Shown here: positions 627 to 23,528 of the stretch, in pieces | How positions within the stretch are numbered: position 1 is the first letter of the stretch | Layout: each line of letters opens with the position of its first letter | From: a phage | Assembly: GCA_017676145.1 (NCBI GenBank) | Contig: GCA_017676145.1_3628.1 | DNA length: 64,000 bases | Reading direction: 5' to 3' (one strand) | Position numbers and translations under genes: made by a program | Notes under the pieces: generated by a model | The model's database searches: none | The model's input: the letters and a program-made list of their open reading frames with translations, nothing else | What the model was told of the DNA's origin: nothing

Positions 627-1673
627 TTAAGCATAAGATATGGTGATCCATTGACCGTTTACAAATTTTTGAATGGCTCCAGTCCAATAGTCGCCCTGAT
701 ACGGGTGTTTATATGCGTAATTGCCGGAGCACATTACATGCCCAGGGTATACTCTTGATTCTCTGTAGGTGGTTCTGAAACGGTTTGCTATCCTTACATC
801 TTCAACACCTCTACTAGGCATAGGAATAGTAAGGTTACCACTACTGTCTGCGCTACTACCATTTACCCTGCGGACCACGTTTCTTCCACCAACTGTTGCA
901 TATTGACCCCTGGCGGTTTTATCGTTACAATCTACTCTTCCACCTATTTGAGCGCTGCCGCAGGATTGTTGCCCATTAACAGTGGATCTAGGTATCGTTA
1001 CCGCATTAGCATTTGCAGAGGAGCTTTTTGCATCATTGCATTCAAGATTTCCTTGGATAGCCAGTCTTGCACGGTTGGCAGTTATAGCATTGAGCTTCAT
1101 AGCCGAAAACACAGGCTGCCCACCAGAAGGTTGAAATCTCCAACGGAAACCGTCTATTTGGTGAGAGGGATCATCAAGGTCTGTGCCGTCAGCACCACCG
1201 ATGTTGTCCATAATCCAGAAATCCATCATCGTCTTGTCTGGAGTTATGGTGGTGTATATCGCCGCACTATCTGTTGACGCGGATGCAAACTCGATTCTTT
1301 GAAGACCTAAAGTTTGAGTCTGGATCATTGTGTCTCCAGCCTTGTCAACATAAAGGTCATCCATTTCTTCAGGCGAGTATACATTGAGAACTTGACGTGC
1401 AGCAGCTTTGTCTGGAACGTCTGCCAGATTATTAGTGACCCTTAAGAATCTATTATCCCATCCTGGGACAACATCTTCTGTTAAATGCTTTAGCCACGCA
1501 GAGAGCATGTGGAGTTCAAAGTTAACAACTTCACATGCTATCCTTTGTGTCATATCCCAACCTTTCAATCTCTCTTCTTTGTTCGGTTGAGATTTGTTCA
1601 ACTCTCCTGTATTTTCAAGCACAACATCCTGATTGGCCCAAATATCAAGAGGGATAACTGGTTTAGTCATCAC
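627..1673 (-). CDS. tail fibre protein (paralog B)
   Basis: 348 aa; paralog of 2686-3726 with shared N-terminus and C-terminal NGQWIT motif; GDTM motif typical of phage fibres. Confidence 0.6.
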   Translation of the reverse strand: MMTKPVIPLDIWANQDVVLENTGELNKSQPNKEERLKGWDMTQRIACEVVNFELHMLSAWLKHLTEDVVPGWDNRFLRVTNNLADVPDKAAARQVLNVYSPEEMDDLYVDKAGDTMIQTQTLGLQRIEFASASTDSAAIYTTITPDKTMMDFWIMDNIGGADGTDLDDPSHQIDGFRWRFQPSGGQPVFSAMKLNAITANRARLAIQGNLECNDAKSSSANANAVTIPRSTVNGQQSCGSAQIGGRVDCNDKTARGQYATVGGRNVVRRVNGSSADSSGNLTIPMPSRGVEDVRIANRFRTTYRESRVYPGHVMCSGNYAYKHPYQGDYWTGAIQKFVNGQWITISYA

Positions 1674-1760
1674 GTTCTCCTGAGAAAATTCCTTAAGGAC
1701 TATTTTAACACTTTAGAGAACAAAATGCAAGAACGGCATCCTTGCCGTTCTGACCTTTGT

Positions 1761-2075
1761 TTACCTTTTACTATGCTCTACAAGCATGTGTAAAATCTTT
1801 TGCACATCGGCTCTGATACCGGAGACATCTGTCCTGACATCTTGCTTAAGGTCGTTAATATCGGCCTCTAGCTTACTTAACCGGGTCTCAATAATGGAAT
1901 CAAGTCTATCTTTTGTAACCATGCTATTTTTCACTAAAATGAGGTCTTTCTCCAGCTCATCCAACCTCTTGGAAATGCCTTTCCATTTGGTGTGCCACTG
2001 GTTGAAAGCCCATACACAGATCGGGACAACGGTACCCATGCAGATACCGTACAATGCCGCCAAATCCAACTCCAC
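1761..2075 (-). CDS. membrane-anchored coiled-coil protein (holin, antiholin or exclusion candidate)
   Basis: 104 aa; N-terminal hydrophobic helix LAALYGICMGTVVPICVWAF followed by a charged heptad-like region. Confidence 0.35.
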   Translation of the reverse strand: MELDLAALYGICMGTVVPICVWAFNQWHTKWKGISKRLDELEKDLILVKNSMVTKDRLDSIIETRLSKLEADINDLKQDVRTDVSGIRADVQKILHMLVEHSKR

Positions 2076-2086
2076 AACACCTCCTC

Positions 2087-2671
2087 TTAGAGGGTAGGTC
2101 GTTCCGGGAAGAAAATGTCAGGGGCTTTAGATGTATCTATTTCAAGAAGTTTTACCCTGTACATTTTCAAATCTCTGATGTTGCGTTTTTGGTCATCAGT
2201 GAGATCGTATTCAAGGTCAATCATGTCTTGATAGGCACCAATTCTAGCAGTAGCCCAAGCAAGTTCTGTCTCTATGACACCCTCTGCCTGTTGAACAAAG
2301 AATTCATTGTCTGTGACAAATTCATCACCAACTAAACGCAAAGCGTCGTGGTGGAGCATAATGTTTTCTGGTACCTCTTCTTTTTTGGCGATAACCACAC
2401 GAAGACCTGGAGCAGGCCACAAGGCATCAGGTTCTTCTGTAGATGTCTTAAGAATACCCTTCTCGTCAACAAGTAGGAAGATACAGCCTGGATTTTCTTG
2501 TCGTAGTGTTCGTGATTGCACATACCAATCGCCATCATCATTACGTAAAAAATATCCAGTGTATGCCGTATAATCCTCAACCTCCTGAGGAGTCAGCTCC
2601 TTGGTACCTTTGTTGGTGTGGTATTCGCCAGATCCCGGTTGGTAAAGCTTAAACTCTTGAAGTATTTTCAT
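2087..2671 (-). CDS. tail fibre assembly protein (Tfa-like chaperone)
   Basis: 194 aa; C-terminal YRVKLLEIDTSKAPDIFFPERP matches the conserved Tfa C-terminus (YRVLLNRVDTSTAPDIEWP type); directly downstream of a fibre gene. Confidence 0.75.
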   Translation of the reverse strand: MKILQEFKLYQPGSGEYHTNKGTKELTPQEVEDYTAYTGYFLRNDDGDWYVQSRTLRQENPGCIFLLVDEKGILKTSTEEPDALWPAPGLRVVIAKKEEVPENIMLHHDALRLVGDEFVTDNEFFVQQAEGVIETELAWATARIGAYQDMIDLEYDLTDDQKRNIRDLKMYRVKLLEIDTSKAPDIFFPERPTL

Positions 2672-2685
2672 GCTAGTCCTCCGAT

Positions 2686-3726
2686 CTACGCATAATTAAC
2701 AGTGATCCATTGACCATTTACAAGTTTCTGTAAAGGCCCTGCCCAGTAGGTTGAACCACGCATCTCTTTTTTATCACCAAAATGCCAACCTGTGACAACG
2801 TAGCCGTTGCGAACTGGAGATTCAGAAACACCATCAACAAGTCTTGCGCCGATTCTGATATCCTGTACACCTGTCTGCGGGATGGTGATCGTTACATCCC
2901 CGTTGCCGTTAGCCGTCACTCCATTCACAGAGCGCACCACATTTCTGTTACCGACAACACAATGCTGGCTTCTTACAACCATACTGTCACAACTTGCACC
3001 GCCATTGACATATACTGACCCAGCCGTCAACTGACTAGCTACATTGCAGTTGGTGAATGTTGCTGTGCTGCTAATGGTGAGGTTATTACATCGCATGTTA
3101 TCAACAACTTCAACATTGCCCACCACTTTCAACAACGCACGATTAGCCGTGATTGCGTTCAGATACATCAAAGTGAACTCTGGGTTAATGTCAGGCTGAG
3201 TTGGCTGAAATCTCCAACGGAACGCATCTACTGTAGAGGTGCCACCATCATCAAACGCCCCAATATTATCACTTAACCCAAAGTCGAGAGTTGTCTTATC
3301 TGGGCCAATAGTTGTCTCTATCCAAGCCTTATCTGTCTCGGCAGCTTTAAAGTTGATACGTTGCAAACCCAATGGGCCTGTCATTGTATCACCTGTAACT
3401 TTCACATACCTGGCGTCTGCCTCTTCCTTAGTAATAATACCAAGGTTTCTACGGGCAACAGGGATGTTCAAAAGATCACTCAAGTTATTATCACGTACCA
3501 GATAACGGCCTTCTTGAGCGGGGATCTGCTCGTCAGCAATGTATTTTGCCCAAGTCCCGAGCATATTGAAAATATAGTTAAGTTCTTCACAGGATGGCTT
3601 TTGACCAAGATCCCAACCTTTTCTCCACAAATCATCAATCGGGCGTAGCCTGTTCTGTCTGTGGGTGTTAGGCAGAACCTGATCCTCCTCTGCCCAAATC
3701 TCTAATGGAAAACTAGGTTTTGACAT
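2686..3726 (-). CDS. tail fibre protein (paralog A)
   Basis: 346 aa; GDTMTGPL motif; C-terminal KLVNGQWITVNYA; paralog of 627-1673. Confidence 0.6.
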   Translation of the reverse strand: MSKPSFPLEIWAEEDQVLPNTHRQNRLRPIDDLWRKGWDLGQKPSCEELNYIFNMLGTWAKYIADEQIPAQEGRYLVRDNNLSDLLNIPVARRNLGIITKEEADARYVKVTGDTMTGPLGLQRINFKAAETDKAWIETTIGPDKTTLDFGLSDNIGAFDDGGTSTVDAFRWRFQPTQPDINPEFTLMYLNAITANRALLKVVGNVEVVDNMRCNNLTISSTATFTNCNVASQLTAGSVYVNGGASCDSMVVRSQHCVVGNRNVVRSVNGVTANGNGDVTITIPQTGVQDIRIGARLVDGVSESPVRNGYVVTGWHFGDKKEMRGSTYWAGPLQKLVNGQWITVNYA

Positions 3727-3738
3727 TTTATCTCCTGA

Positions 3739-5811
3739 TTATGAGAAGTCTGGCGGGACAACATCTTCTACATACCCTTTCAGAGCAACCTGCCCCATAT
3801 GGAGCACGGTAGAATCCCTAGCGGTAACAGTGATGCTGTCAGACATTACTTGCGGGTATGCCCACACATACTGTTTTACCTCAGGGTATCTATACTCTAT
3901 GGTTGCCATGTTCCCGCAGATACATCTCCATAAAAATTCTTGGTAATTCCTGGTTGGGTCGTAGCCATATACCGGAGCAAGCTCTTTGCTAGGAACGAAC
4001 CCTGCAAGGTATTGTATTTCAGACGGTTGCCAACCTAACTTAACGATAGGTATGTTTACAGACTCTTTTGCCTTTTCAATACCACCCTGCATCACCCAAT
4101 CGTAGCACTCAGTGCAGAAGAAATCAAGAGCACCTGCTTCCTTTTTATATTGGTCAGCAAGGTTCAGCTTTTGCGTAAGCTCGGTTTCCATAATGGTCGG
4201 GAAAAACAGCAAAGCTGTCATCTGAGCCGATGCAGCGTGTGCTTTTATTGCCTTTGAAATAGCTGCAATACGAGCGCCAAGCTTACCACGACAAAATGCT
4301 ACATACTTGTCATAAACACCGCCAGTTTTAGGATCGTCAATAGTCCCAATGTCTAGTGCATATTCACCAGTCTCATCATAAAACGCCTGTTTTGTAGGGT
4401 AGTCATAAATACAAGGCTTACGAGTATCGGTATTGAACCACCACCACGGTTCACCAATCTGCATAATTACTGGCAGGTTGTTTCTCATAGCGGCTGATGC
4501 AAAATTCTTAAATACTGCAGTAAGGAAATTCATACCCTCTTCAATGGTTGGAGACAAGAGGTAACTACAAGGCGTATAGCCTGTTTTAGCATAGTTATCG
4601 TTCCAATCTCTCTGGGTCCATTCCAACGGACAGGCATCGCTATAAAGCTCAAAGCTTACAGACTGCATAACGTCGAAGTCATGTCGCTTGGCATTATACA
4701 TAAAGTCATCGTGCCATTTATAAGCTGCAGCGTTTAGAGCCCCTGTCCTGTTTATAGACCATTGGGTTCCGGACCATGTGTAATCATAATAATGGCTCAT
4801 ACCAACATAATGGTTTATGGTTCCGGTATAGCCCAGACGCTTGATATTGCTCACCACCCTTAAAGGAGATACGTTCCACATATCGTCATATGCTGTGCAG
4901 ATCCCAACGTCGTGCTCTTTCACCTGGATATTGTTAAGTTGCATCATTTTCCAGCCTGTGTCTGGCTGAAGCAGATCTAGACGCAACTCACACTCTACAT
5001 TTTCCGTTCTTGGGTCTGTACTATTACTTACCCAATCTTTAGGCATAAGTGGTATTAGAATCCTTCTCACCTGTCGAGGATCAACACCCATCATGTTGTT
5101 GTTCTGGTCCATCCCGACGCAGTCCTCGAAATCAATATGAATTTCTGCAACATTCTTATCCTCTGAGATGCTGACAGCATATTGAGCTAAAGGAACATAG
5201 ATGATTGTGCCATCAACAAGGTCTACAGTCATAATCATCTTTTCAGGGGTGGAGAAGTTGCTGGCATTGGTTATTGACATTCTGAACCAAAGCTTGGTGT
5301 TTCTCATCTCGTAGTGATCATCAAATCCAATGCCGAAATGGTCATACTTGTCAACTGTTTCCCAAATGCACCCAGCCATGCCTCCATATGTTCTTGACAC
5401 TAAACGGTTAATACAGCAGTTATTATCTGCAACAATACAGGTGCTTTCAGTCTGCTGGGTAGTTGTAACCCAATATCTTGGGTGAAACATTCTCTCCTCA
5501 ACAGTATCCCAAGATATTCTGTCAAGATTCTCATCTGAAACTATTGTGCATTTCGCTCTTTGTGTTCCAATCATAACCCCTTGAGAGTTTGATGAAAACT
5601 CCATAAAGAAGCTTCTTGGCAACCTGTTTGGCAATTTGTCAACAATTTCTACAGGGATCTCAATACTGGTTGCCCCAACCGGGATAGTTACATCGCCCTC
5701 AACATGATCATAATCTCTACCTGGAACTGCAGTATCCTGAACTGTGCGGTAATGAAACCGTGCAGCCATCGTAGAGTAATCACGGTAAGGTTTAAAAACA
5801 GCTGTTGCCAT
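3739..5811 (-). CDS. tail-associated protein with N-terminal Calx-beta-like segment
   Basis: 690 aa; N-terminal DYDHVEGDVTIPVGATSIEIPVEIVDK resembles a Calx-beta repeat; position in fibre module. Confidence 0.4.
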   Translation of the reverse strand: MATAVFKPYRDYSTMAARFHYRTVQDTAVPGRDYDHVEGDVTIPVGATSIEIPVEIVDKLPNRLPRSFFMEFSSNSQGVMIGTQRAKCTIVSDENLDRISWDTVEERMFHPRYWVTTTQQTESTCIVADNNCCINRLVSRTYGGMAGCIWETVDKYDHFGIGFDDHYEMRNTKLWFRMSITNASNFSTPEKMIMTVDLVDGTIIYVPLAQYAVSISEDKNVAEIHIDFEDCVGMDQNNNMMGVDPRQVRRILIPLMPKDWVSNSTDPRTENVECELRLDLLQPDTGWKMMQLNNIQVKEHDVGICTAYDDMWNVSPLRVVSNIKRLGYTGTINHYVGMSHYYDYTWSGTQWSINRTGALNAAAYKWHDDFMYNAKRHDFDVMQSVSFELYSDACPLEWTQRDWNDNYAKTGYTPCSYLLSPTIEEGMNFLTAVFKNFASAAMRNNLPVIMQIGEPWWWFNTDTRKPCIYDYPTKQAFYDETGEYALDIGTIDDPKTGGVYDKYVAFCRGKLGARIAAISKAIKAHAASAQMTALLFFPTIMETELTQKLNLADQYKKEAGALDFFCTECYDWVMQGGIEKAKESVNIPIVKLGWQPSEIQYLAGFVPSKELAPVYGYDPTRNYQEFLWRCICGNMATIEYRYPEVKQYVWAYPQVMSDSITVTARDSTVLHMGQVALKGYVEDVVPPDFS

Positions 5812-8105: not shown

Positions 8106-11100
8106 TTAGTCGTGAGACTCGTTCCAAGGTCCCTGGAAGCTTGAGTTAGAACGACTAACGATCACAGTGGGACAGGAGATTGTGACACCTGTCACGCTAG
8201 ACGTTGACCACGGTGTGTAAATCTCGATAACAATGTCTATAGTTTGTTCACCCAGACCTGTTATCCCTACCGCACACATGCCGTTGTTGTCGTTAAAATA
8301 CTTCTTGCCAGCAAGGATCTGATGACCAGCTATCCATGCATTCAGTTGGGAGCTGGCAAGAGTACCATTCAGTTTAAAGAAGAATGTTACGTTCTTACCC
8401 TGACCTGAAACGTTATCTACGTATCTCCACCTCCAACGGCAAACCCTTTGCTGGGAGTTATATACTGGAGCACAATCCCCGTAAGTCCTGTGTGCAACAA
8501 TTGCACCTTCGAACTGGTTAGCGCGGATAACAGAAGCTTCTACACGACCACGGAAGGTACCTCCGGTTGCATCTATGGTGCCTCTAAAGCTACCATTATT
8601 GGCATAAACATCCCCACGGAAGGTACCACTGGTGGCGTTAACTGCCCCTGTGAAGTTACCTGCACTAGCGTTGATGTTACCTTTCACCCACACATCCATA
8701 AACTGGGCGTGCCCGTTCTTGTTAATATACCAACCGTATTTGTGGTACCCGTTGCCATCGTAGTTGTTAGACGAAATTTCTTGTGCAATCTTGGCAGAAG
8801 AGATCGTCCCGTTCTCTATAAAGGCATCTTTCAAGAACGCTTGGTTGTTCTTAATTGCGAAAGCAAGGGTTGCTGTTCCATTCCCAGGGTTGTATACCGC
8901 AAAGTTGTTTGCACTAACCATGAAGTATGATTGAACTTGGCCTCCAGAACCTTCCATGCCCAATTGGATACCTGCCACATACTTATTCCCTGCGGAGTCT
9001 ACCTGTATTTTTGTGCCCCATTGAGCATTTACTTTGCCCTCTAAGTCGGTCACAGCCTTAGATGTTGTAGCCACTGCAGCTCTTAGCTCTGATACATCCC
9101 CAACATCATCAATGATCTCCTGCTTAGCAACAGCAAGTTCTTGACGAATAGCTGACGCTGTGCCGTTAATAAGATCCACAGTTGCTTTGTTGGTATCGGA
9201 GATTGTAGCGTCCAGTGCTGTTTTTGTGGAGGTCAGCTTACCATCCAAATCCGCAATCGCCTGTTTGTTGGTAGAAATCTCCCCACGTGCAGAAGTTATC
9301 TGCTCAGACAGTGCGGAGGTTTTCTGATTCAACAAATCTGTGGTGGCCTTGTTGGTATTGGCAATCAAGGTATTGAGATCAGTTTTTGCGGTAGTTATCT
9401 TACCATCAAGGGTGGCATAGTTCTTAGATACCGTCGCGTTTGTCTGACTGATCTTTTGATCCAGAGTTTCAGAGGTCCTGTTAAGAAGATCCACTGTCGC
9501 CTTATTGGTGCTCAAGATGCTTGCGTCAAGTTCTGTTCTCTGGGTATTGATCTTGCCATCCAGAGTTTTATCTCCGGCAAGGTATCCGCTCTCCACTCCA
9601 CCTATTTGTTCTACCAACTCCCCTTTGGCTGCAACCAATTTCTCGTCTAAAGCCTCTGTCTTTTTGTTCAGAAGATCAGTGGTTGCTTTATTGGTTGTCT
9701 CAATCAGGGATGCCAGTCTTCCACTTTCAGTGTTCAGATCGTTGGTGAACTTGTTCTGTGCAGCAACAAGTTTCTTATCCAGCGCTGTGATATTGCCATT
9801 GACATCCTCAAACTTCTGAGTTGTCTCTGTAACTACAGCACCTATCCTATCCCCAAGTTGTTGGAATGCCTCATCTACCCTTCCGTCCATGTACTTGTTA
9901 AGTTCTGTGACACGATTTTCAACCTCTTCAATAGAGGAATCTAAAGTGCTCATCAACTCTTTATAAGTTTCTGTCTTTTTAAATTCAGCATCTATCTGAG
10001 GCATCAAATCTTCAATGGAGGTATAGCAGCGTGCAGCACACTCTACAAACTGAGAACTACCAAAAGCATTTGTGGTTCGAATATACCAATAATAAATCTT
10101 ATCGTTCTGCAGACCTTCAGATGTCCAAGTTGAACCAACACCCATGCGGGTGGCTTTTGAAGTAACGGTTGCATCACTTGTGTCCGGCAACCTTGTCATA
10201 CCAGATGTCCAAAAGTCATACTGGGTGCTTACACTTGCCAAGTCCCTACTGTGTGGAATCAGGGTGATAGCAAAGTACCCCTGCTTAACTTCTACAGAAA
10301 CCGGAGCTTCAGGTGCCTGAATGTTAAACTCGCAGTACGCTTCTGGAGATACACCGCCTTTATAAGATGTTGCAACCACGGTTGCTGTGTATGACCCTTT
10401 GGTCAATCCTTCTACGCGGACAAACTGCTCGACTGTTTGTGCTGTCCAAATAATCTCTCCGTTCTTTCTTACCTGCACAATATTTTGAGCGTAAGTCCCA
10501 ACGTTGTCCCAAGCTAAAACACCGTGAGTTACTTCTCCAGCTTGGAGAACGGAATATCTGAAGTTTTGCGGTTGAGCTACACCAGATGGGGATATCGGAA
10601 TATCTACATCGCCAGAATCCGGAAGTTGCCCTGTGGCATCATTCCACTCTTTAGCATCTTGACGAAGTTTTACCTTGACACCGCCCTTTTTGGTGAACTC
10701 CCATTCAAGAACCCTCATTTCTTGGCCCACTATACCAATACTTGGGAGGTCCATTGTAACATAACGGCCAGGCTTAAATTTAAAACCTCGCATATTGCAG
10801 GTGACTTCAATAATCCTGCCAGCTCTAGCACGTCTTAAGAAGATTGCAGAAACACGTTGAGCTTGATAAGGACTGGTAACAAAGCGATAGTCTATATCGA
10901 TTATCTTTCTTTCTCCATCCTTCTCTATCCACTCTGGTACAAACACTGATGGGAAATCTGTTTCAGAATACCCTTTGGTCGGACTAGTGAATCTGCCAGT
11001 TATCGTGTTAGATCTTTTGTCAAATGAGGCTTCCGGATAGATCTTAACCTCACCACAGACACAGTCCTCACTCAATGTCATTGTTGCCGGACCATAGTAT

Positions 11101-11945
11101 GCACCAACCAGCAAACCATACTTACCAGCAACATAACTAAGGTCTGCACCGCAAGCTTTCAGCATTTCTGCCATAATACTTGCTGGGGCCTCATCCATGT
11201 CAAACTCACCGTTAATGGTGTAACGTCGCTCACTGGTGCCGTCAGCGTTTTTTACCGCCTCGTCGCATATGTTGGCAGCCTCCTTGAAGGACTCCCAGTT
11301 GATGGTTTCGTCAGGACATTTAAGGTACGTTCTTAAATAGTCTAGGATCACCAAGGCCGCGTTATTGGTATACACCTCTTTACTGGTGCGAGGATCATAA
11401 CATTTTTTACCAACCTTGATGAGTGTAACGTTTGGCAACCCAAAAGGAAACTTGTTAGGGTCAAACCTGAAGCTAACACGTAGCCAGCTGATCCCTCTAC
11501 CTATCATGTCCGGTGACCACGATGGGCAGTGTGTGCCCATGAAAGGATCAGAGGTTTTTCTGTCGTTATGTAGCTCCCACGATACCAAATCTCCATACGA
11601 AGAAATAGGATTACCGTCGATAAGTATATCTTCTATACCTTCTAGCGGGTGATTGGCAAGAACAATGGCACAATGGAGGGTTCTGTCTCTATCCTGCTCC
11701 AAAAACGCAAGCAATCCAGATGTGCGTGTCTTCCCATACACTACAGAGCAAGGTGCAGCAGAAGATCTGAGAAGCTTTTGTCTATCTTGCTGACTTCTGT
11801 AAGATTTGTTACCCTCGAAAATCTTATCCAGAGTTCTGGTGGTAACAGTGTTCAGACTGTCAGCCAGAGCTGCCTTGGATGCGTTCCAGTCATAGCTTGA
11901 AGATCTTGCAGAAGCAACGATGTTATCAATCATTGCAATTGGCAT
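8106..11945 (-). CDS. lambda J-like host specificity protein (central tail fibre)
   Basis: 1279 aa; fibronectin-III-like segment (IQAPEAPVSVEVKQGYFAITLIPHS) and C-terminal block KYVAGIQLGMEGSGGQVQSYFMVSANNFAV resembling lambda gpJ ([30 protein letters not shown], recalled from memory); central coiled-coil repeats. Confidence 0.65.
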   Translation of the reverse strand: MPIAMIDNIVASARSSSYDWNASKAALADSLNTVTTRTLDKIFEGNKSYRSQQDRQKLLRSSAAPCSVVYGKTRTSGLLAFLEQDRDRTLHCAIVLANHPLEGIEDILIDGNPISSYGDLVSWELHNDRKTSDPFMGTHCPSWSPDMIGRGISWLRVSFRFDPNKFPFGLPNVTLIKVGKKCYDPRTSKEVYTNNAALVILDYLRTYLKCPDETINWESFKEAANICDEAVKNADGTSERRYTINGEFDMDEAPASIMAEMLKACGADLSYVAGKYGLLVGAYYGPATMTLSEDCVCGEVKIYPEASFDKRSNTITGRFTSPTKGYSETDFPSVFVPEWIEKDGERKIIDIDYRFVTSPYQAQRVSAIFLRRARAGRIIEVTCNMRGFKFKPGRYVTMDLPSIGIVGQEMRVLEWEFTKKGGVKVKLRQDAKEWNDATGQLPDSGDVDIPISPSGVAQPQNFRYSVLQAGEVTHGVLAWDNVGTYAQNIVQVRKNGEIIWTAQTVEQFVRVEGLTKGSYTATVVATSYKGGVSPEAYCEFNIQAPEAPVSVEVKQGYFAITLIPHSRDLASVSTQYDFWTSGMTRLPDTSDATVTSKATRMGVGSTWTSEGLQNDKIYYWYIRTTNAFGSSQFVECAARCYTSIEDLMPQIDAEFKKTETYKELMSTLDSSIEEVENRVTELNKYMDGRVDEAFQQLGDRIGAVVTETTQKFEDVNGNITALDKKLVAAQNKFTNDLNTESGRLASLIETTNKATTDLLNKKTEALDEKLVAAKGELVEQIGGVESGYLAGDKTLDGKINTQRTELDASILSTNKATVDLLNRTSETLDQKISQTNATVSKNYATLDGKITTAKTDLNTLIANTNKATTDLLNQKTSALSEQITSARGEISTNKQAIADLDGKLTSTKTALDATISDTNKATVDLINGTASAIRQELAVAKQEIIDDVGDVSELRAAVATTSKAVTDLEGKVNAQWGTKIQVDSAGNKYVAGIQLGMEGSGGQVQSYFMVSANNFAVYNPGNGTATLAFAIKNNQAFLKDAFIENGTISSAKIAQEISSNNYDGNGYHKYGWYINKNGHAQFMDVWVKGNINASAGNFTGAVNATSGTFRGDVYANNGSFRGTIDATGGTFRGRVEASVIRANQFEGAIVAHRTYGDCAPVYNSQQRVCRWRWRYVDNVSGQGKNVTFFFKLNGTLASSQLNAWIAGHQILAGKKYFNDNNGMCAVGITGLGEQTIDIVIEIYTPWSTSSVTGVTISCPTVIVSRSNSSFQGPWNESHD
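9100..9800 (-). repeat. in-frame tandem repeats (about 100 nt units) inside the J-like gene
   Basis: protein shows repeated TNKATTDLLN / TNKATVDLLN / TNKATVDLIN units; matching DNA units such as tggccttgttggtattggcaatcaagg and ttgctttgttggtatcggagattgtag. Confidence 0.4.
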
Positions 11946-12382
11946 TAATACCTCCAGACATCAACAACGATAGAATCTTTCATATCGAACGTAAAGATCC
12001 CTTTATCACCTTTCGCCCAAATCTGGTTGTTCCAGAACACACCAGCGGTGAGGCCGTTCAGACCTTCGAAAATAACAATATCGCCACGCTGAACCTGTTT
12101 AGGAGTATCCAGTCTAGTCAAAAAGAGATCAAAAATAGTAGGCAGGTGTGTGGTTTTGAAACGGAGCATGCACCATCTCTTGCTTTCCAACTCTGTTTTA
12201 TACGTTCCTTCAAAGTTAGAAAGAAAATCTGTTCCGTATTGGGCATCAACACACTTAGCCGCAAAAGTGCAACAATCGTGGAATCCCCATTCAAACGGGA
12301 CGGTGGCTTCTTCGTCAAATACTTTCCACAATTTTTCTTGCCAGTCTACTAAACGAGGGTGTGTGCTCATTAAACCTCCCAA
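11945..12382 (-). CDS. tail assembly protein, possibly NlpC/P60-like (gpK-like)
   Basis: 145 aa; FHDCCTF motif; immediately upstream of the J-like gene. Confidence 0.3.
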   Translation of the reverse strand: MGGLMSTHPRLVDWQEKLWKVFDEEATVPFEWGFHDCCTFAAKCVDAQYGTDFLSNFEGTYKTELESKRWCMLRFKTTHLPTIFDLFLTRLDTPKQVQRGDIVIFEGLNGLTAGVFWNNQIWAKGDKGIFTFDMKDSIVVDVWRY

Positions 12383-12936
12383 ATGATCGGGCGGCTCGCC
12401 ACCTGATCCACATATTTAAAAAATCTGTCATTATCGTTTCTTGAGCTATGGCTTTCCTCTGTGTATCGGTAAGGAAAACCTCTTAACCAGCTGTTGAAGA
12501 TGGAAGAGATGGATATGGACAAAGCACTATTCTCCCCTGTCTGAATAGCCATGTCCGTTATAAGGCCGTCAAACAAGCCATTAGTTGTAACAGGCAAACC
12601 ATTCTCCATAGCGGTGATATACAACGTGGCACGGCAACCGGAATACTCAGTCTTCAGAAGATCACCTACATACTTGGGATCAAACCCGTTCAATGTTGCT
12701 ACCACAGATCCGAAGTTGGTGGCATCTTTCTCAGACACAGCAGTCAATGTTGCTGATCCACCTATCCCTATAAAATGTTGCCCCTCAATAACCACAACAC
12801 CAGTTCCTGAGCACACCCTGACAGTCCCTGTTGGCAGCTCTAGCTTTGCAGCAATTAAGATCTCAACACCATCAAGCTCTAGCTTTTCAAGAAATAAATT
12901 ATCTAATGGCGCTCTTATCATCTTAGAAATCCTCAA
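12370..12936 (-). CDS. minor tail protein (hypothetical)
   Basis: 188 aa ORF overlapping neighbours; operon position. Confidence 0.3.
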   Translation of the reverse strand: MRISKMIRAPLDNLFLEKLELDGVEILIAAKLELPTGTVRVCSGTGVVVIEGQHFIGIGGSATLTAVSEKDATNFGSVVATLNGFDPKYVGDLLKTEYSGCRATLYITAMENGLPVTTNGLFDGLITDMAIQTGENSALSISISSIFNSWLRGFPYRYTEESHSSRNDNDRFFKYVDQVASRPIIWEV

Positions 12937-13513
12937 AGAAGTTGATAACTATATTGTCACCTTTCTGCATAGCATCAACCTTTTGCTTAATTTTATAAAG
13001 ATCTCGGATATGAAATCTACCCTTCGGAGATTGAGTTATTATTTTCATGGTATCCCCTGCGGCAATGGGTTTCCTAAGTCTTGGGGATATGTTTATAACA
13101 GCGGCCCCAACACCATCACTTCGTACTGAGGCTGTCACCACTTTCAACTCATCATTGACAGATATTTTATCTCCAGCTCTGGCTATATCCCTGTTAGGCT
13201 CCCAACCAACCGTCTTCAAAAAATCGTCGTTACCAGTCGGTCCTAGAGCGATTGGCTCATTGGAGGTCACTGAATGCCCATAAGCCTTGATAAGAAAAAT
13301 GTTTCCATCTTTGTAAACCTGATCAACAAAACTTTTAAGCTCTAACAACTGAGACTCGCTGATATTGGAAACCGTCAAAGTGCCTTTCCAATTAGGTGTG
13401 GCATAGGTTACTTTTTGCGTTTTACCTGTAAACGGGCTTTTAAACGTAACAATATCTGCCAACAACTCCAATCTAATGTCTGGAAGGTATCTAGGCCTTT
13501 CCCATAAAAACAT
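12923..13513 (-). CDS. minor tail protein (hypothetical)
   Basis: 196 aa ORF; operon position. Confidence 0.3.
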   Translation of the reverse strand: MFLWERPRYLPDIRLELLADIVTFKSPFTGKTQKVTYATPNWKGTLTVSNISESQLLELKSFVDQVYKDGNIFLIKAYGHSVTSNEPIALGPTGNDDFLKTVGWEPNRDIARAGDKISVNDELKVVTASVRSDGVGAAVINISPRLRKPIAAGDTMKIITQSPKGRFHIRDLYKIKQKVDAMQKGDNIVINFFEDF

Positions 13514-13612: not shown

Positions 13613-16600
13613 TTACTTCAATTTTCCTTGTAACTCGGTGACAACCTCTGTCAATTTTTTAACCTGTTCCTCAAGGGAGGTTATTCTATCATCTTGTTCT
13701 CTGCAAACCTGAACAAGCAATCCTGTTACAGCAGCATAGTCAACATTATAGAATCTTTCCTCGGTCATCAGAGGAATACCATCTTGAGTAGGACCAGGAA
13801 CCTCTTTCCTTTTCACGAAAGAACCAACCGCTTCAGGTAATGCTTCCATAACCTCTTGAGCAATTACCCCCGCGTGAGGCATACCATTCTCTTTTAGAGT
13901 GTAGGTATAGCCTTTCATCTTACGGATAGCTTCCAGCGCGTTAGGAATAACCTCTATGTTATCCTTCAGGTCACGGTCAGAGCTCTGGCTGACAGCAGTG
14001 CACTCTACTACGCCGTTAACAGCAAGGTACCTTGACTTGGCCTCATCTGTCTTAGCACCACAATGCCATACCCAACTGGCAGATGTAGCGTTGTCGTTTA
14101 TCTGGAACTCAAGCACGTTCTTCCTGTCTGCGCCATTACCCCAGTAGTACATTCTGCCTGTATTAGAAGGCATGTTGGAAGTGTTGGTAACATCAGTCCC
14201 ACCACCTGTATGTATCATGAACTCCGGGTCAAGATTGGAGCCTGCGGTTTTAAGAGTAATTCCCTTACCACCAAGCTGCTGCCAAGGTCCCCATGTGAAA
14301 ACACTACCTATTGTTGTTCCATAACGCAGGAATTTTTCCCCAAGATATGATATATACTCCTGTACGCAACTCTCTGGAACATTGGCGTAGTTCCTGTACA
14401 CTATAAGCGTACCTGCTCGGGAGCATGGGTAGTTTCTATCAGGTGTGGCTTGAGCATTGGCCTCCTGATGATAAAAACCTTCCCTATCCCCTTTATAGTC
14501 GTTAAGGTCATTAACCCCCAGACCTTGCCCTCTGTGTTGTATGACCTTGTTCCACGCTCTATGGTTACCACCCTCGATAGACCTGGTGTATAACTGATCA
14601 AGGCGACCAGCCATTTGGAAAGCATAGTTCCCAGAAAAAGCCACAGACAGTCCACCAACAACCATCGAACCTTCTGGTCCGTTGACGTTGCCAGCCATTA
14701 TTTTGGACGGGTTATTAGGCCCAAACTGGTTGTTCCAGTCTGCACCAGTGTGGCATACAAAACCACCAGGAGCTGAGAAAGTGCCATCTTTGTTGAAGTT
14801 GTAGAATCTGTGAGCAGAACCTACAACATCACGAACAATAACTTGACCAGCCTCTGGAGTAGATCTGAACTCTGCCTGTCCTTGCAGTCTTGCGCCATTA
14901 CCGCATTTAGAGGTAAAGGTATTGTTGATCAGATCCTCTGTTCCTTCCGATGCAGCTTGGAACCCTGCGTTAGAGAACAGTGCTTTTCTAGTGGTTTGGC
15001 TACCCGGGCAAATGTAGTTAAGACCGTTGTACCACATCTCTACAGGGGGCATTTCTGTCTTACTCATCAGAACCATTCGGTCAGGTGTGCCTATATAGTG
15101 CCGATCTGTACTACCGCCTGTATAGAACCCAGGTGTTCCCTTGAACTCCGCAAGAGTCCTAGTGTTTGTTACATCATCACCTTTAATTGCAAGGCTTAAA
15201 TTATCCGACGCAAGAGGGGCGCAAAACTTGACACCATCTTGGTTATTAGTAACATTTCCTACCTGCCAGTCATTTTCTCTGGTAAATACCTCAAGAACGT
15301 TTCTGCTTGTGTAGACACTGACAGGGAAAGCACGCGACTCAACATAGAATGCAACATACTCCTGCTTTCCTCTGGTTGGGGATACACATCCAAGAATTGC
15401 TTTCTCGTTTTGGTAGAAATTAATAACCCCTTGGAAAGAATCCCCTCTGTCTGTCCACCCACCGGTTCTATAGTGACACTGTAAGGTCGCACAGTTCATA
15501 GGGTCACTGCCAGATGACGATCTGGTAACTATAGTAATATCAGTACCAGTTGTGGGCGCATAGTATGGATCTGTTCTAACGATGATTGGGTAGTATTTCC
15601 CATCTTCCATTCCTGCAGTTCTTGGCAGTGTTAAGAAATCTTTTACGCCTGCCGCTACAGGAACTTTGAACAGATTCTGAGCATCTGCTAAAGTTGTAGC
15701 TCCAGTGCCACCTGCGGCCTGAGGTAAAGGTTCCCACTTGGCCTTCCGGTTGTTATAAACACCCCATTCCAGAGTACCATTACCGGACTCATCCATCCCT
15801 CCATCCCAGACGACCATCTTGGCGGCTTTCTTGGAACCCCAGAATCCTCTTTCTGCCCCTGAACTACGAATCCATTCTCCAAGTCCCCAGTTTGTCAGCT
15901 GACCAGTGAGATCCCCGACCTGCATGTACTTAGGACAATCTAATACACCATCTTCACGGAATCCTAAATACCGATGAGTTTCAGATCCTTTTGCGCCTTT
16001 GTGCAGGTGGACTGTTAACCAAGTCTTATTGTCGTTTCTTACCTCGGAGTAGATCCTATACCCATGCTCAAGGACACCGTCAGCACTGTATTTGTCCCCG
16101 TTAACAATACCTGATGCCGACTTAACATCAGCAGAGCTTTGAGACAGGTAAAGGTGCCCGAAGGTAGGGGAATTTCTAGACCCAAGACCGATGTGCGATC
16201 TAAAAGTATCATCGTTACGAGGTCTGACCATTGGCTGCCATGCAGTCCACTGGTTTGTGTTGGCCTGATAGGTTCTTAAATACCAAACATCTACGTTAGA
16301 GAATGGATAGTATTCCTGACGACAGCCAGTGCCACCGTTAGCATTGTTCTGCCAAACAATCAAGTGACCAGCACCAGAACCTGCAGGATAACCATTTGCC
16401 TCAGTTGCATTAGCTGTCATCGGCTGGTAGTATATGCCGTCCTGATTACCAGTCAAGTTATTGATATTGAAATTTGCCTCAAGGGCTGCACGTTGCTTAT
16501 AGAAAGCACCGATATTGATACGGACTCCAGCGGCATCTCTGGCTCCTGTACCGCCTTGCTCTATAGCAAGAGGTTGCCACGAGGCTGTTTGCTGGTTCCA

Positions 16601-17419
16601 CATACCCCAACGGCCTGTTGCATCAAGCTGCAAGTACCCTGCCGTGTTTAAATCATCTCCAGCACGGATAACTGTTCTTGTTGGGTTGTTTGCCTCCAGG
16701 CGTTTAAATTCATCACGAAGTGCTATTCTTTTTGTTGTTGCTACACCGTTGGTTACTGCAATGGTATACATGGCTCCAGAGGTAGCGCCACGGAAAATAC
16801 CATCAACAGTCGTAGTATCACGACGAGATACCACACCGTTCAAAAATTTTTCACCAGCTGCTTCAGAGGGGTAGTTAGTAGTTCTTCCCTCTTCAATAAC
16901 TGCAGGACCAACAAAGTTGACAAGGTGAATAACATCGCCTACAGTATGCACTGTACCAAAATCTACCCGCTGTGCAAGTGCTTTAGCATCGTTGGCTGTC
17001 TGAACCGTAACATCCATTACATCCTGGACAGACTGCCCTTCGGCTGTCATGATCATAGATGCGCCAATGGTAGACTCCAACTCCTCCCTTAAGGACGGGT
17101 CTGTATATACCATCCATGCAGCATCAGTAATCCCACCATCAGAGTACGGTGAAGACAGTGCAGGCACAGTGTGTGGAAATTCGCCTTTCCAACGCAGGTA
17201 GAGGTCTTCCTCTTCGAAGTAGGCAAAATCCATTGGGCCGTTTAACTTACCACCTTCCTTAAAGGAGATTACATGAGAAACAGTCCCATCCACATGGACA
17301 ACATCGCCAATTTTTACACGACGGGTCAGGTCTGGTTGTTGAACAACCAGGTAATCATCCTCTGTCACTGCGGTAGTGGCAGGAAGAGATTCAATTCTGA
17401 CAACTTTAATATCAGCCAT
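13613..17419 (-). CDS. tail fibre or tailspike with C-terminal intramolecular chaperone (peptidase S74-type) domain
   Basis: 1268 aa; C-terminus SSDRDLKDNIEVIPNALEAIRKMKGYTYTL matches the autocleaving chaperone signature; N-terminus shares an anchor motif with 20054-20722; internal duplicated segment. Confidence 0.6.
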   Translation of the reverse strand: MADIKVVRIESLPATTAVTEDDYLVVQQPDLTRRVKIGDVVHVDGTVSHVISFKEGGKLNGPMDFAYFEEEDLYLRWKGEFPHTVPALSSPYSDGGITDAAWMVYTDPSLREELESTIGASMIMTAEGQSVQDVMDVTVQTANDAKALAQRVDFGTVHTVGDVIHLVNFVGPAVIEEGRTTNYPSEAAGEKFLNGVVSRRDTTTVDGIFRGATSGAMYTIAVTNGVATTKRIALRDEFKRLEANNPTRTVIRAGDDLNTAGYLQLDATGRWGMWNQQTASWQPLAIEQGGTGARDAAGVRINIGAFYKQRAALEANFNINNLTGNQDGIYYQPMTANATEANGYPAGSGAGHLIVWQNNANGGTGCRQEYYPFSNVDVWYLRTYQANTNQWTAWQPMVRPRNDDTFRSHIGLGSRNSPTFGHLYLSQSSADVKSASGIVNGDKYSADGVLEHGYRIYSEVRNDNKTWLTVHLHKGAKGSETHRYLGFREDGVLDCPKYMQVGDLTGQLTNWGLGEWIRSSGAERGFWGSKKAAKMVVWDGGMDESGNGTLEWGVYNNRKAKWEPLPQAAGGTGATTLADAQNLFKVPVAAGVKDFLTLPRTAGMEDGKYYPIIVRTDPYYAPTTGTDITIVTRSSSGSDPMNCATLQCHYRTGGWTDRGDSFQGVINFYQNEKAILGCVSPTRGKQEYVAFYVESRAFPVSVYTSRNVLEVFTRENDWQVGNVTNNQDGVKFCAPLASDNLSLAIKGDDVTNTRTLAEFKGTPGFYTGGSTDRHYIGTPDRMVLMSKTEMPPVEMWYNGLNYICPGSQTTRKALFSNAGFQAASEGTEDLINNTFTSKCGNGARLQGQAEFRSTPEAGQVIVRDVVGSAHRFYNFNKDGTFSAPGGFVCHTGADWNNQFGPNNPSKIMAGNVNGPEGSMVVGGLSVAFSGNYAFQMAGRLDQLYTRSIEGGNHRAWNKVIQHRGQGLGVNDLNDYKGDREGFYHQEANAQATPDRNYPCSRAGTLIVYRNYANVPESCVQEYISYLGEKFLRYGTTIGSVFTWGPWQQLGGKGITLKTAGSNLDPEFMIHTGGGTDVTNTSNMPSNTGRMYYWGNGADRKNVLEFQINDNATSASWVWHCGAKTDEAKSRYLAVNGVVECTAVSQSSDRDLKDNIEVIPNALEAIRKMKGYTYTLKENGMPHAGVIAQEVMEALPEAVGSFVKRKEVPGPTQDGIPLMTEERFYNVDYAAVTGLLVQVCREQDDRITSLEEQVKKLTEVVTELQGKLK

Positions 17420-21460: not shown

Positions 21461-22138
21461 TTAGTGCGGTCCACTTGTCTCACCATCAGGGCAAGAGTGG
21501 GTATGACCTTTATATTCTGCATAGAATGAGTCCAAATCCACACCAGCAGCAGTTATGATTCTACCCGATGGGTCTATTGTGGCACCATTCATTCTAATAT
21601 TTCCATCCACAGCAGCTCGTAAATTGGCAGCTCCGTTGGTGAAAGAAAACTCCCCGCTACTGTCGCACCGTAATGTCCCACCAGGTGTTTGAAGCTCAAA
21701 ATCACCAGAAGGTGTCAGCTTAAAATAAACCCTATCATTCCATAACTCTACATTATCAGGATCGATCTGCAGAGCATTAGAGTCTGAATGAACAGAGGTT
21801 ATTGCCCACCCCGGAAACAGGCCGTGAGTTTGTTGATCATCGTTATTGTTTTCATTTCTCTCTGAAAACTGCAACCCTACAACATCTCCAGCCTTAATAG
21901 GGAGTGTTAACCTTGCCTTCCCACTGTTTGCAGACATCACCTGGATTGGCACATCATAGATAAGAGGGTATCTCTCAACATCTCCGTCATCAAACGTGGT
22001 TTCAGCTATTGGCTGCACGGCTGCGGAAGGGATACTGTAATCTACGCTGACAACTCTAGCCCTGATACTGGTGTGGTAGTCCCTCATTATTTTTTCTATA
22101 AAGGATCTTACGGCAGCATCTTTCCTATTTATTGCCAT
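21461..22138 (-). CDS. baseplate protein (hypothetical, spike or hub-sized)
   Basis: 225 aa ORF; position. Confidence 0.3.
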   Translation of the reverse strand: MAINRKDAAVRSFIEKIMRDYHTSIRARVVSVDYSIPSAAVQPIAETTFDDGDVERYPLIYDVPIQVMSANSGKARLTLPIKAGDVVGLQFSERNENNNDDQQTHGLFPGWAITSVHSDSNALQIDPDNVELWNDRVYFKLTPSGDFELQTPGGTLRCDSSGEFSFTNGAANLRAAVDGNIRMNGATIDPSGRIITAAGVDLDSFYAEYKGHTHSCPDGETSGPH

Positions 22139-23136: not shown

Positions 23137-23516
23137 TATTCTAACCCTTGCTGTTCCTTGTAAAGATCAACTGGGGTACCGTATACAAGTTGCAGCTCAG
23201 ATCTTGCTCCAAGGTTGTATCTTCCAACCCGTCCCCAATATTGATCGTCTTTAAACGACAGCACCATCAATCTACCTTTCGGTAAGTCGTCTCTGTAATG
23301 CAGTCCGTCTAGAATATCTTGACAAGCTGTTACTTTTCTGGTTACTAAAGGGCTGTCACCTACCGGACCAAGAGATAACCACCAGGACTCATCCCTCTCA
23401 TTCCATTGCATACGCATTTCATACGTCTCATTGTCTAAAACAACACGCATGGTTTGATCAGGAAAGCCGTCAATGTCCCACACAAAGGTGATTATGCACC
23501 AATCTTTAAGCTCCAT
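23136..23516 (-). CDS. hypothetical tail protein
   Basis: 126 aa ORF. Confidence 0.3.
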   Translation of the reverse strand: MELKDWCIITFVWDIDGFPDQTMRVVLDNETYEMRMQWNERDESWWLSLGPVGDSPLVTRKVTACQDILDGLHYRDDLPKGRLMVLSFKDDQYWGRVGRYNLGARSELQLVYGTPVDLYKEQQGLE

Positions 23517-23528
23517 TACACGCTCCCC

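Follow-up and report, generated by a model that had tools for sequence, protein, structure and literature searches.

Repeated protein modules and a predicted alpha-helical shaft of several lengths in the J-like tail protein of Vequintavirus phages

In trimeric autotransporter adhesin stalks and in T4 fibritin, rod length follows from how many helical repeat segments there are; trimers typically have polar Thr/Asn layers in the core. Phage lambda gpJ (PDB 8IYK, 8XCG-8XCK) has a helical link between its last FN3 domain and the Phage_Tail_Tip beta-prism. The central fibres of the F-type pyocins (F2, PDB 25vf; F7) are J-like as well and carry a long three-stranded alpha-helical shaft right before the beta-prism. 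[quoted passage not shown] In the F7 pyocin, a trimeric coiled coil beside the beta-prism seed is converted into beta-prism upon receptor binding and performs mechanical work, a fold switch described for non-contractile tails (PMC12874032). The descriptions of these two pyocins make no mention of tandem units of the TNKAT type that are the subject of this work (PMC13455828, PMC12874032).

The protein analysed here is encoded by a contractile Vequintavirus, in a window of 64,000 nt (contig GCA_017676145.1_3628.1) to which all coordinates refer; all features described lie on the minus strand. The gene (8106..11945, 1279 aa) is that of rV5 gp37 and is 95-96% identical in nucleotide sequence to its counterparts in rV5-like phages. 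Mass spectrometry detected gp37 in rV5 virions, and HHpred hub matches were given for it by Kropinski et al. (PMC3606486); no Pfam hub family matched aa 1-500 in our search. The product had been called J-like in the first-pass annotation, and profile and structure searches agree. PHROG 31 ('central tail fiber J') matches at 2e-164, with the profile alignment starting at aa 143, and lambda gpJ was found in the PDB search at 3.6e-28, its Ig/FN3 domains and beta-prism both aligning. The FN3-like Ig_J_second domain (PF24489, aa 547-652, 9990..10307) reaches 105.8 bits (cut-off 27; 1.4e-30) and Phage_Tail_Tip (PF09327, aa 957-1097, 8655..9077) 131.5 bits (cut-off 22; 2.4e-38), while Ig_J stays under its cut-off of 29 at 24.1 bits. 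AlphaFold2 predicts beta structure for the Phage_Tail_Tip domain, and Foldseek with this beta part returned structures 8xcj and 8xci, the central fibre of lambda gpJ, as top matches. The alignment to lambda falls into two blocks, in which residues 497-684 correspond to J 666-850 and residues 957-1115 to J 844-990. The lambda link is short, since J 844-850 is present in both blocks, whereas about 270-330 residues separate them in the J-like protein, which therefore has about 270 residues extra.

The name 'central' fibre, also used in the first-pass annotation, is doubtful for this protein, given that the phage brings a hub and a spike of its own. Genes for a sheath, a tube initiator of phi92 type (Dit_like), a hub (phrog_196) and the N-terminal domain of an axial spike, again of phi92 type, are present in the same window, and in phi92 itself the tail axis is occupied by tube initiator, hub and spike (PMC13450770). 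The phi92 cryo-EM paper does not describe a homologue of the J-like protein (PMC13450770). Upstream of the J-like gene are three genes of a siphovirus-type tip module (11945..13513), namely a Dit-like gene (12923-13513), a tail protein of phrog_2048 (12370-12936) and a DUF6950 gene (11945-12382), whose order is that of the tail-tip genes of siphovirus CAjan at 32-45% amino-acid identity. The J module is located between fibre genes and wedge genes, and the arrangement expected of a gpJ-like protein, axial at the end of a non-contractile tail and encoded after tape-measure and tip genes, was not found here. The label 'central tail fiber J' is probably misleading for these contractile phages.

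At least four consecutive units of the TNKATTDLLN type had been proposed, and four are present at residues 751-960, each opening with TNKATTDL or TNKATVDL: unit 1 (aa 751-812, 62 aa, TNKATTDLLNKK..., 9510..9695), unit 2 (aa 813-863, 51 aa, TNKATVDLLNRT..., 9357..9509), unit 3 (aa 864-917, 54 aa, TNKATTDLLNQK..., 9195..9356) and unit 4 (aa 918-960, 43 aa, TNKATVDLINGT..., 9066..9194). Pairwise local alignments of the units gave z = 8.3-19.1 over shuffles, and the observed score was reached in none of 300 shuffles. The autocorrelation of the protein peaks at a lag of 105 aa, which indicates a two-unit super-repeat. Upstream of unit 1 there is a half-unit (aa 716-750, NGNITALDKKLVAAQNKFTNDLNTESGRLASLIET, 9696..9800) that resembles the second half of the units and has the same helical phase. 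Downstream, a degenerate fifth copy (TSKAVTDLEGKV / TSKAVTDLEGKVNAQ, aa 961-975, 9021..9065) is only weakly similar to the other units (z 1.5-3.8); it forms the conserved junction into the beta-prism and opens the Phage_Tail_Tip domain, and its motif is kept in the siphovirus relatives CAjan, P0006, P0007 and P0009 and in the F2 pyocin fibre.

The units are not mirrored by DNA repeats of roughly 100 nt, as had been suggested. In DNA they measure 186, 153, 162 and 129 nt (a period of 129-186 nt), across whole units they agree at 46-54% of nucleotides, and no exact match between two units is longer than 11 nt. Tandem Repeats Finder at a minimum score of 30 reported no repeat in 9000-9900. At identical amino acids the same codon was used 48 times against 44.1 expected from codon usage, with no excess. 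The sole DNA repeat, from a seed-based search, is a 31-nt core encoding TNKATxDLLN (family D1), present in unit 1 (9665..9695), unit 2 (9479..9509, the reference copy) and unit 4 (9164..9194), with 77-81% identity and spacings of 315 and 186 nt. A tandem repeat at the DNA level was rejected on all of these measures, the DNA similarity being no greater than the protein demands. Nucleotide periodicity in 9000-9900 had been set beforehand as the deciding test, and on it the DNA claim fails and the protein claim stands.

The units belong to a longer stretch (aa 646-975, DLMPQID...AQWG, 9021..10010), placed directly between the Ig_J_second and Phage_Tail_Tip domains, that lacks Pro, Trp and Cys and is proline-free over 311 residues. 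Its hydrophobic period is 3.625-3.64 residues (z 18-25) in all three alleles, and in the four-unit form a single period of 3.625 with z about 18-24 depending on the shuffle set. This is within the 3.5-3.67 range of coiled coils and sustained in phase, with a local drift within about 70 degrees along 330 aa; the coiled-coil-like character ascribed to the units is in this way supported. Leu, Ile and Val together make up 55% of the core positions and Thr 13%. Unit lengths among the forms (43, 44, 47, 51, 54 and 62 aa) are each no more than 0.15 turn from an integer count of 3.63-residue turns, and the same is true for the inter-allele indels of 14, 18, 80 and 102 aa, so that helical phase is kept. 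For the four-unit form, AlphaFold2 (a monomer run with a 93-sequence alignment, pTM about 0.3) predicts two helices, aa 659-782 and 793-947 (124 and 155 residues), at pLDDT 83-90. The 10-residue Gly-rich break between them (GVESGYLAGD, aa 783-792, inside unit 1, 9570..9599, pLDDT about 55) is the sole predicted interruption. It also occurs in the six-unit sequence and is part of an 18-aa segment missing from the three-unit allele, for which a single unbroken helix of 180 residues is predicted; the segment amounts to 4.96 turns and leaves the hydrophobic phase unbroken. Prediction confidence falls in the last unit, at aa 948-961 in the four-unit form (the C-terminal 14 residues of unit 4) and over the entire last unit in the three-unit form.

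The single sharp hydrophobic period of 3.63 and the AlphaFold2 helix fit a straight alpha-helical rod of about 45-49 nm, whose physical length and straightness are inferred. By homology to trimeric fibres (lambda gpJ, F pyocins), the shaft is probably three-stranded. An alpha/beta coiled coil was also considered for TNKATxD, prompted by the sequences MATKDD and IENKADKAD. Beta-layers are defined by insertions of 2 or 6 residues against the heptad frame and the motif [aliphatic]-A-T-K-[polar]-[DE] (Hartmann et al. 2016). TNKATTDL only resembles this motif, and the beta-layer reading was rejected in view of whole-turn units, continuous phase and predicted helix.

The first-pass annotation had recommended comparing the repeat number among related phages, and the comparison shows that units number 2, 3, 4 or 6 and that the predicted rod length differs with them. 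With the shaft as query, a word-index protein search, in which coiled-coil words saturate the candidate list, gave at least 13 matches, and an exhaustive HMMER search was used in its place. The rV5-type has 4 units (1279 aa, 58 records), the FFH2-type 3 units (1199 aa, 43 records), the WM-type 6 units (1381 aa, 13 records) and O157 typing phage 14 has 2 units (1174 aa, 1 record, a partial genome). A scan of IMG/VR contributed only three further Vequintavirus loci, two of them with 4 units and one with 6, besides a single unrelated protein with long repeats. Between alleles the shaft is 40-60% identical against 98-100% in the rest of the protein, of which it is the only variable part, and flanking sequence within the genus is 94-99% identical. 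Synonymous divergence is saturated in the shaft (pS 0.70-0.77) and low in the flanks (dS 0.06-0.29). The shaft pN of 0.12-0.36 is well under pS, which argues for purifying and not diversifying selection. Phages magaca (4 units) and naswa (3 units) have identical neighbour genes; downstream of the J-like gene they do not differ at all for 3 kb, and a divergent patch of 1.4 kb covers their different shafts. Genome comparison thus shows the three-, four- and six-unit forms as old cassettes that have been exchanged between near-identical genomes.

The two-unit form has another origin. It is a clean deletion of 315 nt (9195..9509) between two repeat cores, that of unit 2 giving the left end point and that of unit 4 the right one, and it removes units 2 and 3, i.e., one 105-aa super-repeat. 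The junction lies within the core that encodes TNKATVDL and is a microhomology of 13 nt (AAGCCACTGTGGA). An assembly artefact is unlikely, since k-mers of 90-120 were used to assemble the typing phage 14 genome and the homology at the junction spans just 13 nt. The proposal that repeats expand or contract by recombination and so alter fibre length therefore holds in part: unit number does differ, and typing phage 14 carries an inter-core deletion, but the divergence among the units is too great for them to act as an ordinary substrate of homologous recombination, and in about 114 genomes no copy-number change was seen inside any allele class. Most of the variation is due to whole-cassette swaps through conserved flanks.

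To explain these observations we favour, as somewhat better than an even bet, a helical shaft built of duplicated modules that comes in discrete lengths, is exchanged as a cassette and may serve the reach of the distal tip. The shaft separates the FN3-like domains from the distal beta-prism and C-terminal domain and would have grown by duplication of modules of about 44-62 residues. Repeats of 7 and 11 residues would add up in each module to whole helical turns (3.63 residues per turn on average), and a module could therefore be gained or lost with the hydrophobic seam left intact; the duplications would be old, so that the units are alike only as protein today. With relatives of 2, 3, 4 and 6 modules the rod would be expected in discrete lengths, roughly 33, 37, 49 and 64 nm if fully helical. 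Cassettes would move by homologous recombination within the gene's conserved flanks, and a rare short-homology deletion between repeat cores would remove units. Rod length may then govern the reach of the conserved distal tip through the glycan layers of the host surface.

The main competitor, which we consider unlikely, is that the length differences have no function and that the shaft is a weakly constrained spacer whose neutral cassettes and indels are carried along by frequent recombination. No co-variation between shaft allele and partner gene was detected for more than 25 genes in seven genomes, fibre and baseplate genes within about 20 kb on either side included, so the alleles assort independently of every gene tested and length could be selectively neutral. 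Phages with each of the alleles were isolated on E. coli, K-12 included, and the distal domains are identical across forms. On the other hand, a neutral spacer does not account well for three deeply diverged cassettes that persist despite the near-identical flanks, for the purifying selection that the low pN implies for each cassette, or for helical phase being preserved by every indel.

It is improbable, in our estimate, that the shaft is a metastable element of the F7 pyocin kind that turns from coil into beta-prism on receptor binding. The protein belongs to the same family and the shaft has the same place, directly N-terminal to the Phage_Tail_Tip beta-prism (PMC12874032); the shaft is unusually Thr-rich (13.6%), matches to the motif SxSxxMxxLxS cluster in the last unit, and this is the unit in which AlphaFold2 confidence collapses. 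Over the whole shaft, however, the motif occurs 5 times against 3.2 expected, a count reached in 236 of 1000 shuffles, and all but the last unit is predicted as helix. The published mechanism comes from non-contractile tails, and a contractile sheath makes the energy source dispensable. A related version is as improbable: the shaft, or at least the last unit by the beta-prism, would be a fold-switching element of a contractile phage, located in an accessory fibre module that derives from siphoviruses, with cassettes setting rod conversion or tip reach. If true, the coil-to-prism mechanism would extend past non-contractile tails.

A quite improbable alternative takes the shaft as a docking rail for other fibres, with cassettes offering different sites. 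It has a precedent in the F2 pyocin (PMC13455828), the Gly-rich break of the four-unit form, also found in the six-unit sequence and not in the three-unit one, could be such a site, and the phage has many fibre proteins in need of an attachment point (PMC8594841). Against it, the shaft allele showed no co-variation with any fibre or baseplate gene out to about 20 kb on either side, and magaca and naswa combine the same neighbours with unlike shafts. That the helices instead fold back at the break into an antiparallel bundle, a compact domain and not a long rod, is very unlikely: AlphaFold2 splits the helix there and the pTM is low, but the three-unit allele without the break is predicted as one helix, the phase runs uninterrupted through the segment, and the homologous shafts of lambda and the F pyocins are parallel trimers. 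We note that a fold-back at aa 783-792 in place of a kink would roughly halve the length of the shaft. A hypermutable contingency locus with frequent copy-number change has in its favour the one deletion variant with its junction inside repeat cores and is effectively refuted, since neither copies fit for slippage or homologous recombination nor any change of length within the allele classes (about 114 genomes) was found.

The duplicated-module shaft is a tidy yet fairly ordinary case of modular fibre evolution. It gives a precise, testable anatomy to the one segment that varies strongly in a virion protein that is invariant elsewhere; the phages concerned are widely used in E. coli O157 typing and biocontrol. 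Four natural lengths, phase-preserving modules and near-isogenic pairs such as magaca and naswa, which differ only in the cassette, make a convenient test system. It is suited to the question of whether fibre length affects adsorption through O-antigen, ECA or capsule, and the modules may serve as a template for fibre-length engineering.

Among the known systems, autotransporter adhesins and T4 fibritin are unrelated to the J-like protein, in whose shaft no beta-layer or neck elements were detected. The P22 tail needle gp26 (PDB 4LIN) is likewise a trimeric fibre with repeated coiled-coil segments, and there is a weak resemblance (ITANTKAITALN...LDGRVTTAE, E about 1e-3) that is probably compositional or convergent, as gp26 belongs to another protein family with other flanking domains. 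The similarity to lambda gpJ extends to the order of FN3 domain, helical link and prism; gpJ is axial on a non-contractile tail, whereas the phage that encodes the J-like protein is contractile and has a separate hub and spike. The F2 pyocin fibre matches at E=8e-17 over aa 866-1078. The pyocin shaft is rich in Ala and Arg and the Vequintavirus shaft in Thr, Asn, Lys and Asp; the F7 fold-switch motif is not enriched in the latter, and the co-variation data lend F2-type side-fibre docking no support there. In other lineages, long helical stretches with internal repeats of their own are common upstream of the Phage_Tail_Tip domain, one such protein having at least 8 units of 36 aa. The closest relatives outside Vequintavirus are the J proteins of Queuovirinae siphoviruses (CAjan, 9g, SE1), where J is an axial siphovirus fibre and the link, in the nearest siphovirus relative CAjan, is only about 115 aa and without TNKAT units. 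Identity to these proteins is 52-59% in the N-terminal 640-760 aa and 50% in the tip domain, and they share with the Vequintavirus protein the four-gene order of Dit, tail protein, DUF6950-like protein and J as well as the junction motifs DLMPQID and TSKAVVDLEGNVNAQWG.

The modular helical shaft of the J-like protein is real: it is made of a well-defined protein repeat and occurs in four natural length forms. The gene (window 8106-11945, minus strand) is a single ORF of 1279 aa that matches Ig_J_second (aa 547-652, 1.4e-30) and Phage_Tail_Tip (aa 957-1097, 2.4e-38) in Pfam and PHROG 31 'central tail fiber J' (2e-164). Its DNA shares 95-96% identity with rV5-like Escherichia phages, genus Vequintavirus, and the J-like protein is rV5 gp37, which has been found in virions by mass spectrometry (PMC3606486).

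Between the FN3-like domains and the tip, the motif T-N-K-A-T-(T/V)-D-L recurs at aa 751, 813, 864, and 918, marking four consecutive units of 62, 51, 54, and 43 aa (window 9510-9695, 9357-9509, 9195-9356, and 9066-9194, respectively, all on the minus strand). Pairwise local alignments of the units gave z = 8.3-19.1 against composition-preserving shuffles, and none of the 300 shuffles scored as high. A degenerate fifth copy, TSKAVTDL at aa 961, forms the start of the Tail_Tip domain and is marginal against the other units (z 1.5-3.8). Protein autocorrelation peaks at a lag of 105 aa, and TNKATT and TNKATV types alternate to give a two-unit super-repeat. The first-pass annotation was therefore right about four tandem units in the protein; the DNA repeats of about 100 nt that it saw mirroring them did not hold up. 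The true period is 129-186 nt, Tandem Repeats Finder detected no repeat in window 9000-9900, whole-unit nucleotide identity is 46-54%, and the longest exact match between any units is 11 nt. The sole DNA repeat family is a 31-nt core in units 1, 2, and 4 (coding TNKATxDLLN; 77-81% identity, spacings 315 and 186 nt). Identical amino acids share the same codon in 48 cases vs 44.1 expected from codon usage. Since DNA similarity between units is low and codon sharing is at chance, the duplications must be old. A second, shorter repeat lies 3' of the Tail_Tip domain (window 8548-8660, aa ~1096-1133), with four 11-residue units (NFTGAVNATSG, TFRGDVYANNG, SFRGTIDATGG, and TFRGRVEAS) that are probably a beta-helix or prism repeat; in the DNA it shows up as a 47-nt pair (72% identity, spacing 66 nt).

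The units sit in a stretch without Pro, Trp, or Cys (window 9021-10010, minus strand, aa 646-975), the shaft. Fourier analysis of its hydrophobicity gave a single sharp peak at 3.625 residues, with power at 3.5 residues absent; the 3- and 6-unit alleles peak at 3.63-3.64 residues, and Z scores for the three alleles are 18-25 against shuffles. Local hydrophobic phase is kept to about 70 degrees over all 330 residues. A heptad coil (3.5) has a left-handed supercoil and a hendecad coil (3.67) a slightly right-handed one (PMC4786415), so the pattern indicates an essentially straight helical bundle with mixed 7- and 11-residue repeats. Hydrophobic-face residues are 55% Leu/Ile/Val and 13% Thr, the core positions inside the TNKAT motif being I-T-T-L. 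AlphaFold2, given aa 640-1100 and an alignment of 93 sequences, predicted helices at aa 659-782 and 793-947 (pLDDT 83-90) in the 4-unit form, separated by a 10-residue break (GVESGYLAGD, aa 783-792, pLDDT about 55); aa 948-961 are of low confidence, followed by beta structure from 962. This sharp fall in the last unit before the beta-prism (window 9066-9194; aa 430-471 of P0003, the 3-unit protein) covers 14 residues of the 4-unit protein and the entire 43-aa unit of the 3-unit one. The predicted beta part matches lambda gpJ central fibre entries in Foldseek, each with three chains, and the F2 pyocin shaft protein, a three-stranded coiled coil (PMC13455828), matches aa 866-1078 (E=8e-17). From these homologues, we infer that the shaft would be a parallel trimer; at 1.5 Å per residue it would measure about 45-49 nm.

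Comparison of related phages bore out that repeat number varies, with 2, 3, 4, and 6 units found. In a 50,697-record phage collection the FFH2-type (1199 aa, 248-aa shaft, three units of 44, 47, and 43 aa) accounts for about 43 records, the rV5-type, to which the window belongs (1279 aa, 328-aa shaft, four units), for about 58, and the WM/A141-type (1381 aa, 430-aa shaft, six units of 44, 44, 62, 51, 54, and 43 aa) for about 13; no within-type length change was seen in these records. IMG/VR contributes three more loci, two with 4 units and one with 6. The three allele proteins are 98-100% identical outside the shaft, the entire distal part included; shaft identity is 40-60% for 3 vs 4 units and 60-96% for 4 vs 6 units. 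All unit lengths and inter-allele indels (14, 18, 80, and 102 aa) fall at most 0.15 turn from an integer of 3.63-residue turns, and therefore the hydrophobic seam is never broken. In vB_Eco_Alma (L003 1084-4684) the 3-unit gene is annotated as overlapping CDS 1084-3426 and 3413-4684, which indicates a frameshift or sequencing error within the shaft region. Eighteen 'Campylobacter phage' GenBank records (MG0656xx, host Campylobacter jejuni; database matches H11-H13, H24, H88, H89, H133, H143-H145, and others) also match the J-like gene. They share about 90-95% or more nucleotide identity with E. coli rV5-like phages and include all three main shaft alleles; their host label looks doubtful.

Judged from sequence, the shaft alleles are old, purified cassettes rather than products of rapid in-situ evolution: synonymous sites are saturated in the shaft (pS 0.70-0.77; flank dS 0.06-0.29), and pN (0.12-0.36) is well under pS. 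Downstream of the gene, magaca (4 units) and naswa (3 units) are free of differences for 3 kb, and upstream there are only a few; over the shaft the two phages have a divergent patch of ~1.4 kb (gene nt about 1580-3000), the hallmark of a cassette swap through homologous recombination in the conserved flanks. The 2-unit form comes from E. coli O157 typing phage 14 (KP869112.1, a partial genome), whose 1174-aa product has a shaft 98% identical to the rV5 type and lacks exactly 315 nt, units 2+3 (window 9195-9509). The deletion ends inside two of the 31-nt cores, with the crossover in a 13-nt perfect microhomology, AAGCCACTGTGGA, relative to a magaca-like parent. Assembly of this genome used k-mers of 90-120 (PMC4429339), far longer than 13 nt, so collapse is an unlikely source. 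The variant was found in 1 of 72 records matching the junction probe. Recombination between repeats, which had been proposed to change fibre length, thus does occur, but as a rare short-homology event and not as routine exchange between long DNA repeats.

Homology to J is secure; the 'central' in the earlier name is doubtful, since the phage is contractile and has its own phi92-type tube initiator, hub, and spike genes (window 21461-24440 and 28287-29663). Such components occupy the tail axis in the phi92 cryo-EM structure (PMC13450770), and an axial position of the J-like protein is probably wrong. Together with Dit-like, phrog_2048 tail protein, and DUF6950 genes, the J-like gene makes up a complete tail-tip cassette of siphovirus type (window 8106-13513) inside the fibre/baseplate block, flanked by large fibre genes and by the Baseplate_J wedge gene. 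In W70, a related phage, the wedge gene directly adjoins a sheath-initiator-like gene (PMC11370258), so the whole J-like block is missing there. The BASEL authors labelled the J-like protein a lateral tail fibre and remarked that alleles of some of these genes vary strongly (PMC8594841). Phage rV5 bears five to six thin fibres of about 70 nm (Kropinski et al., PMC3606486); adding the FN3 domains, prism, and tip to the predicted shaft would give a similar length, so far only a numerical coincidence. The neighbouring 1268-aa fibre (window 13613-17419; Tail_spike_N and a Peptidase_S74 chaperone) shows variation unlinked to the shaft allele, with pairwise nucleotide identity down to 0.83 inside one allele class, and naswa (L007 11571-16342) has a 1479-aa and a 110-aa ORF in its place. 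A 5.6-kb giant Ig-like or intimin-like fibre gene (L004 31481-37114; L009 31482-37109; L007 31167-36802) is a single ORF in FV3, BP9, NHEP1, and MaxTheCat and is split into two ORFs, at differing points, in magaca and naswa.

The best-supported reading is that the shaft serves as a rigid spacer whose modular, phase-preserving build would permit discrete lengths, shaft length presumably setting the reach of the invariant distal tip. A serious alternative is that the length differences are neutral variation. The shaft might also dock side fibres in the manner of F2 pyocin, as the Gly-rich break present in the 4- and 6-unit forms would allow; this break is missing from the 3-unit form, predicted by AlphaFold2 as one unbroken 180-residue helix, but in seven genomes none of the other genes lying up to about 20 kb to the left or right tracks the shaft allele. 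A coil-to-beta-prism fold switch like that of F7 pyocin (PMC12874032), with which family and position agree, could be suggested by the Thr-rich shaft and by the confidence collapse in the last unit, which also holds most of the few SxSxxMxxLxS matches, yet this motif is unenriched overall (5 observed vs 3.2 expected), the shaft is mostly confident helix, and the tail has a contractile sheath. A reading of the motif as beta-layers is rejected on hydrophobic phase and structure prediction.

In the comparison with lambda gpJ, query 497-684 aligns with gpJ 666-850 and query 957-1115 with gpJ 844-990, two blocks that meet in gpJ and lie far apart here, and the J-like protein therefore has about 270 extra residues. 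Outside Vequintavirus the N-terminal 640 aa are nearest to J of Queuovirinae siphoviruses (CAjan 58.7%, SE1 58%, 9g 54%). CAjan has four genes in matching order (distal tail protein, tail protein, DUF6950-like 'peptidase', and J) at 32-52% identity; however, its DLMPQID-AQWG link is about 115 aa, without TNKAT units. An exhaustive HMMER search gave 704 matches at E<1e-3. Among the 124 listed with an intact N terminus, the proline-free stretch before Tail_Tip has a median of 78 aa (10-90% range 31-227, maximum 755), and the long stretches among the matches listed mostly carry internal repeats of their own. The J-like ORF of IMGVR_UViG_2703718833_000007 (L014) carries eight or more 36-aa units in tandem, ISTLDKKTDASVKRLDQAIADETSARTEAISGVNAS, at aa ~707-1096, where the TNKAT units sit, with a C-terminal domain 44% identical, and looks like an independent expansion of the shaft. 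Link lengthening by internal duplication is thus a recurrent theme across the J-like family. Specific to Vequintavirus are the TNKAT unit and the period of 3.63, and the known class to which the shaft belongs is that of long repeat-built coiled-coil shafts in J-like fibre proteins.
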